DNA of 64,000 nucleotides from an uncultured Armatimonadetes bacterium (lineage in GTDB: Bacteria; Armatimonadota; Hebobacteria; Hebobacterales; Hebobacteraceae): contig OY970296.1 in NCBI GenBank assembly GCA_963716175.1, positions 452,031 through 516,030 on the forward strand. The letters are read 5' to 3'. Each line of letters begins with the position of its first letter. Position 1 is the first letter of the stretch. Made by a program: the position numbers and the translations under genes. The notes under the pieces are model-generated. The model worked only from the letters and a program-made list of their open reading frames with translations. It did not search any database and was not told the origin of the DNA. This document shows positions 23,006 through 25,872 of this stretch, piece by piece.

Positions 23006-23074
23006 GCGCGATCCGCGCTGGCTGTGAAACTTCCTGCCAGCCATTTCCGTATCCCACAGTGGCGGAGGCCGTGG

Positions 23075-23644
23075 ATGAGTGGGACACAGGTCCCAGAGGA
23101 TGAGGGACAGCTAATCCGGCTCTGCCGCGAGGGCGACCAAAGCGCCTTCGATAGCCTGGTTTCCCGCCATTACCGCGGGATCTACAACATGACCTACCGC
23201 ATGCTGGGAAATGCCGAAGATGCCTCGGACCTGACTCAGGAGACCTTCCTGAGGGCCTACACACGGTTGGAGACCTTCCAGCTGGGCCGCCCCTTCACCG
23301 CCTGGATCAGGCGGATCGCCACCAATCTCTGCATAGATCACCTGCGCCAGCGCGGTCAGCCCACCTTGTCCCTGGAGGAACGGCTGGAGTCGGGTGTGGA
23401 GGAGGCCGATAGCCGCCCGGAGGGCTCCCCGGTGGAGCGAATGGAGATGGCCGAGGATTCCCAGCGGGTGCTGGCAGCGGTGCAGCGGCTGCCGGCAAAG
23501 CAGCGGGCGGTGCTCGTCATGAGGCACATCGAAGGCATGACCCTGGAAGAGATCGCGGCCGCGCTGCGCTGGCCGCTGGGCACGGTGAAGGTGAACCTGT
23601 TCCGCGGCCGCCAGGCGGTCCGCGAGATGGTGGGTGAGCTATGA
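23075..23644 (+). CDS. ECF (sigma-70 family group IV) RNA polymerase sigma factor
   Basis: Region 2 (DLTQETFLRAYTRLETF) and region 4 (MTLEEIAAALRWPLGTVKVNLFRGR). Start placed at the internal Met; the track ORF begins at 23024. Confidence 0.85.
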   Translation: MSGTQVPEDEGQLIRLCREGDQSAFDSLVSRHYRGIYNMTYRMLGNAEDASDLTQETFLRAYTRLETFQLGRPFTAWIRRIATNLCIDHLRQRGQPTLSLEERLESGVEEADSRPEGSPVERMEMAEDSQRVLAAVQRLPAKQRAVLVMRHIEGMTLEEIAAALRWPLGTVKVNLFRGRQAVREMVGEL

Positions 23645-24258
23645 AGCGAAATGTGATGACTTGCTCCGCGGTGGCCGATCTGCTGGAAGCTTACTTCGAG
23701 CAGGTGCTTCCGGAGGGCAAGGCAGCGCTGGTGGCAGCCCATCTCCGGCAGTGCCGCGCCTGTTCCGGCAAGCTGGCCCAGATCGAGAAGATCACGGCGG
23801 CTCTGGCTGCGGTGCCGAGCAGCGAGCCGAGCGCAGACCTGGCGCGGTTGATCTCAGCTCGCGTGGCCGCGCTGCCGCCGGCCGCTCGACGTCGCTGGCT
23901 GGTGGTGGGATGGCGCCGCCTGGAGGTGCTGGCCGCAGCGTTCATGGTCTTCCTGGCGGCCTGGCGCTATGCCCTGCCGCTGCTCCTCTCCGAAGAGGCA
24001 GGCCGACTCCGGATCATCATCTGGGCCAAGCATGCCACCGCTCAGTTGGCGATCTGGGCGACGGCCCTGGCCGAGCCCTGCCACCGCCTCTGGCTGGCGC
24101 TACGAGGAACGCCGGAGGCGCTGAGGCCGGTTGTCACTGCGGTCGCGCCGACGGTCGCGCTCTACGCGGCGGCCGAGGTCGTCATCATCGCCGCCGTCAT
24201 CGTGATCGCTCATCGCACTCATCGCGCTCGTTTCGCTTCCGCAACCATCCTGCTGTGA
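23641..24258 (+). CDS. Anti-sigma factor (zf-HC2 type) with TM segments
   Basis: ATGA overlap with the sigma factor gene. HLRQCRACSG zinc-finger motif near the N-terminus, with hydrophobic helices after it. Confidence 0.7.
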   Translation: MKRNVMTCSAVADLLEAYFEQVLPEGKAALVAAHLRQCRACSGKLAQIEKITAALAAVPSSEPSADLARLISARVAALPPAARRRWLVVGWRRLEVLAAAFMVFLAAWRYALPLLLSEEAGRLRIIIWAKHATAQLAIWATALAEPCHRLWLALRGTPEALRPVVTAVAPTVALYAAAEVVIIAAVIVIAHRTHRARFASATILL

Positions 24259-24271
24259 AGGAGGAAGCTAC

Positions 24272-25811
24272 CATGAAAGGGTACTGCAGCGAGACTGTGG
24301 GGAGACGCGACTTGCGCTGGACAGCATGCCTGCTGATGGTGTTGGCGGCGAGCGCGCTGCTCTGGAGCCAGCTCGCGCTCGCGGCCGGCCCGCCCCTAGA
24401 CCTGTCCGGCACCTGGAAGTTCAAGGCCGACTGGGAAGAGAACGGCCAGGCCCTGGGGTGGCAGAAGCCCGAGTTCGATGATTCCACCTGGCGCGACCTG
24501 GCGGTGCCTGGAACCTGGGAAGGGCAGGGCGTCACTACCACCAACCCCCGCTGGCCGGGATCGGAGCCGTACAACGGCTACGCCTGGTACCGGCGCCACT
24601 TCTCCGTCCCGGCGGATTGGGGCCAACCGAACGAGAGCCTGCACATCGGGGCGATTGACGATATGGACTGGGTGTACATCAACGGCCAGCTGGTCGGGTC
24701 CACCAGCGGCGAGAGGGCCTTTGAACAGGAGCGGGAGTACGACCTCAAGCCCGGCCTGCTCAAGCCCGGCGCCGATAACGTGATCGCCATCCGCATCCTG
24801 GACACAGCAGGCAAGGGGGGCATCGTAGAGGGGCCGGTGGAGCTGGTCGGGTCCGCGCCGGAGTCAGCAGCAGAAGAGGAGCCAGGCGAAGCGGCTCCGC
24901 CCCCCGGCAAGTACCCCGAGAAGCGGGGCGACATGGTGCAGGTGGTGGGCAGTGTCACCGTGCCGCCTGGCAGCCAAGTGGACGGAGATGCGGTGGCGGT
25001 GGGCGGCTCGGTTGATGTCAAAGGATATGTCACCGGAGACGTGGTCGCGGTGGGCGGCTCAGTCACGATCCGGCCGGGGGCGAGGGTGGATGGAGACGCC
25101 GTGGCCGTGGGCGGCACCGTCAAGACCGAAGGGGATGGCATAGTCAAGGGTCAGGTCACCCAGGTCACCCTCTTCCCCTGGGCCATCCCGGGTATCTTCG
25201 GGCTCGCCTTCCTCACTGGCTCGTCTTCTCTCGTCTTCGTGCTGGTGAAGAGGCTGATCCTGTGGGGGCTGCTGGCGGTGCTGCTCGCGCTGATCTGCCC
25301 TAAGCGCCTGCAAGTGATGGCGCGGGCCCTGCCGCTTTACCCGGGATGGGTGGCCGGGCACGGCGTGGTGGGCTGGGTATTGACCCCGGCGGTGGTGCTG
25401 CTGGTGGCGCTGGTGGCGGCCGCCGTCTGCGTGGTGCTTGCCATCACCATCATTGGCATCGTGCTGATCCCGGCCGTGGCGCTGGTGCTGGTGGCGGTGG
25501 TGCTTGGCCTATTCCTCCTGCTCTGCCTCGGGCTGGGCGGGGTCTGGGTGAGCATAGGGCAAGCGCTCATCGCCCGCATGGGCCGGCCGGAGGCGAGCGT
25601 GCTGCCGGCGGCGCTGCTAGGTGTGGTATTGACCGCGGTCGCTTCGGCGGTCCCCGTGGCGGGGACGCTGGTGCTGATCACGCTTGTGATCTTCGCCTAC
25701 GGGCTGGGGCTGATGACCGGAGGGGGAACGAGACCGGAATGGACTCATCGGCGCCTGGGAATCCGCCGCGCTCCCGAGGCTGCTCCGGCCTCGCAGACTC
25801 CCACCGCCTAG
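24272..25811 (+). CDS. Polytopic membrane protein with a signal peptide, a GH2-N-like (galactose-binding jelly-roll) domain and bactofilin-like beta-helical repeats
   Basis: The real start is an ATG about 640 nt inside the 725-aa track ORF (23634..25811), just after the anti-sigma stop. LSGTWKFKADWEENG...NGYAWYRRHFSVP...WVYINGQLVGS...DLKPG..NVIAIRILD resembles the Glyco_hydro_2 N-terminal sugar-binding domain. Repeats (VDGDAVAVGGSV)x3 are bactofilin/DUF342-like. At least 6 TM helices follow. Confidence 0.6.
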
Positions 25812-25837
25812 CCTAGCAGCGAGAACCAGTCCCAACG

Positions 25838-25872
25838 AGCAGCGCTGGCGGCAGGATCGCCAGCGCTGCTCT
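25838..25872. terminator. GC-rich 13-bp perfect inverted repeat (AGCAGCGCTGGCG-n7-CGCCAGCGCTGCT) between convergent genes; candidate bidirectional terminator
   Basis: Perfect palindrome read directly from the sequence. No U-tract, which is common for high-GC terminators but lowers confidence. Confidence 0.35.

Follow-up and report, generated by a model that had tools for sequence, protein, structure and literature searches.

A DUF8173 membrane protein as candidate signal-input partner of a putative anti-sigma factor in a widespread ECF sigma factor cassette

The window (the whole 64-kb stretch of DNA that was analysed) encodes three genes on its forward strand at positions 23075-25811: a SigW-like ECF sigma factor, a zf-HC2 anti-sigma factor, and a 512-aa membrane protein, the product of gene 3. 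ECF sigma factors are a main bacterial signalling mechanism, and for most of their groups the input signal and its route to the anti-sigma factor are unknown. The best explanation of this locus, to which we assign a probability of about one half, is an autoregulated operon in which the DUF8173-family product of gene 3 would serve as signal-input partner of a sensor-less anti-sigma factor, by analogy with CnrX/CnrY or RseB/RseA. A sequence-only reading had described the sigma/anti-sigma pair as controlling gene 3; control may also run in the opposite direction, with gene 3 regulating the anti-sigma factor beyond merely being regulated. Thousands of uncultured bacteria have the trio as a conserved unit, and it is most likely an envelope sensor of an ordinary type in which the receptor part is new.

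The sigma gene (23075-23644) and the anti-sigma gene (23641-24258) share ATGA at stop and start, and gene 3 (24273-25811) begins 14 nt past the anti-sigma stop, both as the sequence-only reading had stated. The gene 3 start is preceded by AGGAGG at 24259-24264. Pfam matches to Sigma70_r2, Sigma70_r4_2 and zf-HC2 confirmed the proposed ECF sigma/zf-HC2 pair, with the gene for a polytopic envelope protein in the same predicted operon. Downstream of gene 3, before the gene that converges on it, a hairpin with a perfect 14-bp stem (GAGCAGCGCTGGCG-gcaggat-CGCCAGCGCTGCTC; 25837..25871, no strand assigned) was read from the sequence and is the likely operon end. The terminator scan did not list this hairpin because it has no T-run, and the sigma-70 promoter and terminator scan of the window gave nothing useful.

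Motif conservation revealed a predicted SigW-type ECF autoregulatory promoter at 23024..23055 on the forward strand. It consists of a -35 element TGAAAC (23025-23030), a 17-nt spacer, and a -10 element CGTAT (23048-23052) located 22 nt ahead of the sigma ATG; the sigma-W consensus of B. subtilis is TGAAAC/CGTA (PMC5758882). The pattern G[AT]A[AT]C-N17-CGTAT was present 17-33 nt before the sigma ATG in 11 of 11 orthologous loci. This conservation of the TGAAAC-N17-CGTAT promoter indicates that the three genes form an autoregulated ECF sigma operon, with co-transcription predicted from layout and promoter. The whole block was syntenic in all 11 orthologous loci reaching far enough upstream, which is far beyond chance; a twelfth, on a short contig that covers just gene 3 and the 3' end of the anti-sigma gene, was left out. 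A GTG at 23024 was dropped as sigma start because the conserved promoter at 23025-23052 falls within that extension, and the start was thus fixed at 23075. The sequence-only reading had proposed to look for an AAC-N-CGT-type site upstream of 23024 and of gene 3. Such a site exists, but it lies downstream of 23024, and the window showed no separate promoter directly ahead of gene 3 (24273).

The strict pattern GAAAC-N15-18-CGTA matched once in the 64-kb window, at the 23025 promoter, vs. 0.2 matches expected. When 10 other orthologous loci (~11-13 kb) were scanned with a PWM, the promoter was the sole strong match in nine of them; L005 had an additional strong site directly 5' of gene 3, the sole extra in the 10 loci. 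The same type of scan of the window for more sigma targets gave just a weak match before a NUDIX gene and nothing convincing, and no sigma-type motif was found 5' of the glycan genes. Among distant cassettes, GNAAC-N16-18-CGT[ACT] lay near the sigma start in 19 of 42, vs. ~2 expected by a rough equal-base estimate.

The sigma factor (189 aa, 23075..23644, forward strand) was identified by Pfam, NCBIfam and nearest structure. Pfam matched Sigma70_r2 at residues 28-94 (E 6.6e-21) and Sigma70_r4_2 at residues 130-181 (E 1.4e-16) and gave no r1 or r3 match; the presence of regions 2 and 4 only defines ECF (group 4) sigma factors. The NCBIfam sigma70-ECF model TIGR02937 gave 115.3 bits (cut-off 42.9). 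The closest solved structure was B. subtilis SigW 5WUQ (E 1e-32), and sigma orthologues were 59-78% identical. Scores for the SigW equivalogs NF007223 (153.6 bits; cut-off 209) and TIGR02948 (139.4 bits; cut-off 243.1) were both below cut-off. We therefore do not class the protein as a SigW orthologue, although its promoter and nearest structure make it SigW-like.

The second gene (23641..24258, forward strand) encodes a 205-aa putative class I (ZAS) anti-sigma factor, assigned by Pfam zf-HC2 and hydropathy. Its match to zf-HC2 (PF13490) was 27.1 bits (cut-off 22.2), and as a member of this class it would bind and inhibit its sigma factor. The zinc motif H34-x3-C38-x2-C41 (HLRQCRAC, residues 34-41) lies in the cytoplasmic zf-HC2 domain; the H-x3-C-x2-C motif was retained in 7 of 10 aligned cassettes and in 13 of 36 intervening membrane ORFs from 38 metagenomic cassettes. 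Hydropathy analysis showed hydrophobic segments at ~94-117 and ~163-190 with a ~45-aa loop between them. The protein is thus predicted to be a membrane hairpin whose outside loop is just ~45 residues, without a large sensor domain. This layout recurs in six distant cassettes. No sequence relative of the anti-sigma factor was found in the PDB.

Gene 3 (24273..25811, forward strand) was assigned by homology to the DUF8173 family of membrane proteins, and has about 80 full-length homologues. Residues 16-39 (24318..24389, forward strand) are a predicted signal peptide or signal anchor. The earlier claim of a signal peptide agrees with a hydrophobic AF2 helix at 16-37 that ends in LALA|AG, and with a basic n-region and an AXA motif read from the sequence. 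Residues 44-194 (24402..24854, forward strand) form a GH2_N-type jelly roll without a catalytic domain, as indicated by Pfam and Foldseek. Residues 44-176 matched Glyco_hydro_2_N (PF02837; E 5.8e-12, 46.3 bits, cut-off 28), and the jelly roll also matched PF13364 (E 1.3e-5). Foldseek with the AF2 model (pLDDT 80) returned GH2 N-terminal jelly rolls of beta-glucuronidases and beta-galactosidases in the PDB (E about 1e-11). The proposed GH2-type jelly roll was borne out by these Pfam and Foldseek matches. The domain possibly binds carbohydrate, an assumption made from the fold; in GH2 enzymes this jelly roll serves as a structural domain and has no proven role as a lectin on its own.

Residues 216-298 (24918..25166, forward strand) are predicted to form a bactofilin-like beta-helix of ~4.5 windings with 17-19 residues each. 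The helix carries three GD(A/V)VAVGG(S/T)V repeats, VDGDAVAVGGSV (236-247), VTGDVVAVGGSV (253-264) and VDGDAVAVGGTV (272-283). Their description as three perfect repeats was too strong: one is exact and the others are off by 2 and 1 residues, and the DNA of the three has many synonymous differences. Pfam Bactofilin (PF04519) did not match gene 3 at E<=1. Its homologue P0067 scored 32.3 bits (cut-off 27.9), and 15 of 30 relatives had matches below threshold (best E 3.5e-4). The predicted structure of gene 3 shows the right-handed triangular beta-helix fold used as a criterion of bactofilins. The earlier assignment to bactofilin/DUF342 repeats was thus upheld for bactofilin likeness, for which homologues and predicted fold argue, but not for DUF342, which gave no match.

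The polytopic membrane domain (residues 318-485; 25224..25727, forward strand) was taken from AF2 models with pLDDT 85-97 in the region. Its helices span 320-341, 343-355 (amphipathic), 357-391, 395-435, 443-458 and 461-482, followed by a basic C-terminal tail. At least six TM helices had been claimed; the models show five long hydrophobic helices and one short amphipathic helix. Based on hydropathy, the positive-inside rule and AF2, gene 3 is predicted to make 5 TM passes, with its N-terminus outside and its C-terminus inside. The predicted cytoplasmic stretches contain 3 (342-356 loop), 2 (435-442 junction/loop) and 5 (C-terminal tail) Lys/Arg residues. The signal peptide, odd TM count and positive-inside rule predict an extracytoplasmic beta-helix. 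Most invariant residues of the membrane domain are Gly, joined by R345 and T482. None of its conserved positions holds a His, Asp, Glu or Ser of catalytic type, and no PDB entry gave a credible fold match to it.

Homology places gene 3 in DUF8173 (PF26514). The domain is present on homologues P0012, P0022 and P0025 (47-50% identity) and P0070-P0079 (E 1e-65 to 1e-77), and DUF8173-carrying homologues overall are 36-50% identical to gene 3; the precomputed domain list of P0001, identical to gene 3, does not include PF26514. A profile composed of the beta-helix and membrane region, plus N-terminal columns kept from STN-bearing relatives, retrieved 2,986 DUF8173 cluster representatives at E<=1e-30. 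Sigma, anti-sigma and DUF8173 genes occurred together in 38 of 45 metagenomic DUF8173 loci (~84%), each counted with at least 1.5 kb of upstream sequence, and 36 of these 38 cassettes had a small hairpin-type membrane ORF between the sigma and DUF8173 genes. The trio was retained in 7 of 7 independent contexts with unrelated flanks. The anti-sigma and gene 3 reading frames overlap by 17-20 nt in the distant relatives L085, L089 and L091, vs. the 14-nt gap in the window. Relatives differ in their N-terminal domain, which can be a GH2_N jelly roll, an STN domain (11 of 30) or another unnamed domain, and the beta-helix and membrane domain are constant. These sequence comparisons characterize the trio as a widespread cassette whose DUF8173 protein exchanges its N-terminal domain, a feature that the sequence-only reading had missed. 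Short DUF8173 forms without an extra N-terminal domain and without a nearby sigma gene (L097, L126, L143, L149) suggest that the DUF8173 core has some function of its own. No anti-sigma (zf-HC2)/DUF8173 fusion was found in the best 120 relatives.

A glycan biosynthesis cluster lies upstream of the trio. The glycan-sensing role that the sequence-only reading had suggested from this position, like a functional link to the cluster, is a possibility. This adjacency was present in 11 of 11 Armatimonadota-clade loci reaching far enough upstream and is conserved inside that clade only. A second GH2_N-bearing clade (L087) and all remoter relatives keep the trio and have no glycan genes upstream.

In the proposed mechanism, the DUF8173 protein would face the periplasm, with a jelly-roll head, a short rigid bactofilin-like beta-helix as stalk, and a 5-helix membrane anchor. 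The head would bind a ligand, for which a glycan of the envelope or an intermediate of its synthesis is the most plausible candidate in this protein. Stalk and membrane helices would relay the resulting change to the hairpin of the anti-sigma factor. Transmission could be allosteric, as for CnrX on CnrY, or could occur by exposure to proteolysis, as for RseB and RseA; the freed sigma factor would then transcribe its own operon and further targets. The head varies among relatives and the stalk and membrane domain do not, which suggests a receptor pattern, and the lack of catalytic-type residues in the membrane domain and the tight gene coupling likewise suggest a sensor. Against this model are the missing anti-sigma/DUF8173 fusion (best 120), the sigma-free short forms, the clade-specific glycan adjacency, and the second motif 5' of gene 3 in L005, as expected of a plain target gene.

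A broader version, tentative as a whole and somewhat more apt to fail in some part than to hold in all, describes an undescribed, widespread three-component ECF class (thousands of clusters in several mostly uncultured phyla). Its periplasmic beta-helix and novel 5-helix domain would together be the universal transmitter behind heads of interchangeable kind (jelly roll, STN, others). With the jelly roll, in Armatimonadota, the system would sense the surface glycan that the cell itself makes through the adjacent cluster, and the class would contain the first extracytoplasmic bactofilin-type domain. The candidate receptor in this cassette is defined, has a modular head and occurs very widely, and with it the question of what this ECF group senses becomes open to experiment. 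If the sensor reading is true, it would give DUF8173 a first function, extend the bactofilin fold to the periplasm, and open a way into the homeostasis of envelope and glycans in Armatimonadota, where genetics is almost absent. No paper among those searched mentions DUF8173, and searches that paired bactofilin with ECF or anti-sigma terms turned up nothing of relevance. Neither bactofilin nor Armatimonadetes is mentioned in the main text of the ECF re-classification paper; this sigma group and its neighbour may already figure in that paper's supplements.

Several known systems resemble the trio in part. B. subtilis sigma-W/RsiW shares the nearest solved sigma factor, the best NCBIfam models (SigW) and the TGAAAC ... 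CGTA promoter type, together with a zinc-finger class I anti-sigma factor, overlapping start, co-transcription and positive autoregulation. However, RsiW is single-pass with an outside domain cut by PrsW, whereas the window anti-sigma factor is predicted to form a hairpin of two helices joined by a small loop, and B. subtilis has no DUF8173 third gene. In E. coli sigma-E/RseA/RseB, the periplasmic partner RseB binds LPS intermediates (a glyco-lipid signal) and gates anti-sigma proteolysis. The operon order (sigma, anti-sigma, periplasmic partner) is the same as here, but RseB is soluble and its fold is unrelated to gene 3. The genes rseA-C are conserved neighbours of group ECF02 (PMC7826278). 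The CnrH/CnrY/CnrX system of Cupriavidus metallidurans likewise combines a small membrane anti-sigma factor almost without sensor domain and a separate membrane-anchored periplasmic sensor, which acts on the anti-sigma factor through periplasmic and transmembrane contacts (PMC6851896). A single autoregulated operon encodes all three proteins. In contrast to gene 3, CnrX is a single-pass four-helix-bundle metal sensor, unrelated in sequence and fold. The genes are arranged as cnrYXH, and CnrY does not belong to the zinc-finger anti-sigma factors. The analogy is one of logic only. Pfam and NCBIfam gave no match to a CnrX- or RseB-homologous domain in gene 3. If gene 3 modulates the anti-sigma factor as the third component does in CnrYXH and RseAB, the resemblance would be functional only; the conserved linkage and the sensor-less anti-sigma factor lend such modulation indirect support. 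In FecA/FecR/FecI and in the Bacteroides SusC-like/anti-sigma/ECF systems, the input is a periplasmic STN-type domain or a glycan. The STN domains of DUF8173 relatives (11 of 30) occupy the position of the gene 3 jelly roll, but the cassette has no TonB-dependent transducer and no FecR-type anti-sigma factor.

Gene 3 could instead be only an output of the sigma factor, a stress-induced envelope-protective or scaffolding protein with no signalling part. LiaG/YvlB-type beta-helix membrane proteins are members of envelope-stress regulons, and the downstream position in an autoregulated operon, the second sigma-type motif just before gene 3 in L005 and the short DUF8173 forms away from sigma genes are all consistent with such a role, as are Gly-rich packing helices without catalytic residues, which fit a structural protein. 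However, the receptor pattern, in which the head varies and stalk and membrane domain stay the same, argues for signalling, the anti-sigma factor lacks its own sensor domain in all cassettes examined, and the linkage (84%, fixed order, overlapping frames, very deep divergence) is stronger than that of a usual regulon member. We consider the output-only role rather unlikely; if gene 3 is merely such a protein, the trio is an ordinary ECF operon.

Two readings centred on single domains of gene 3 fared far worse. Bactofilins form cytoplasmic, membrane-associated filaments as nucleotide-independent polymers (PMC12448750), and gene 3 might be such a polymer-forming protein, a chance neighbour of the sigma operon. 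Compared with Caulobacter BacA (2N3D) and Thermus TtBac (6RIA), however, its helix is shorter and lies between a signal peptide and a membrane domain. The signal peptide before it, and the odd TM count and basic tail after it, predict an extracytoplasmic location, relatives have periplasmic STN domains at the same position, and the sigma/anti-sigma linkage is systematic, not accidental. Bactofilins have about 6 windings, vs. about 4.5 in gene 3. Predicted topology, systematic linkage and the lack of a Pfam Bactofilin match led us to reject this reading as very improbable. The possibility that gene 3 is a membrane-anchored GH2 glycoside hydrolase whose substrate is made by the neighbouring glycan cluster has in its favour that cluster and the fact that Pfam, NCBIfam and Foldseek matches were all to GH2 enzymes. 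The likeness to the GH2 N-terminal jelly roll (PF02837) holds for sequence and predicted fold, but in gene 3 this domain is detached from any catalytic domain. Pfam and NCBIfam matches were confined to residues ~43-190, with no GH2 catalytic TIM barrel and no Ig-like domain; NCBIfam GH2 scores were 10-45 bits vs. cut-offs of 544-2000, and beta-helix and membrane helices make up the remaining sequence. With its catalytic domain missing, the enzyme reading is effectively refuted and its probability close to nil. The same jelly-roll subtype occurs elsewhere, in tandem or N-terminal in other secreted proteins. A contig scan with jelly-roll peptides gave 80 loci, 8 of which were full-length relatives of gene 3 and the others different jelly-roll proteins.

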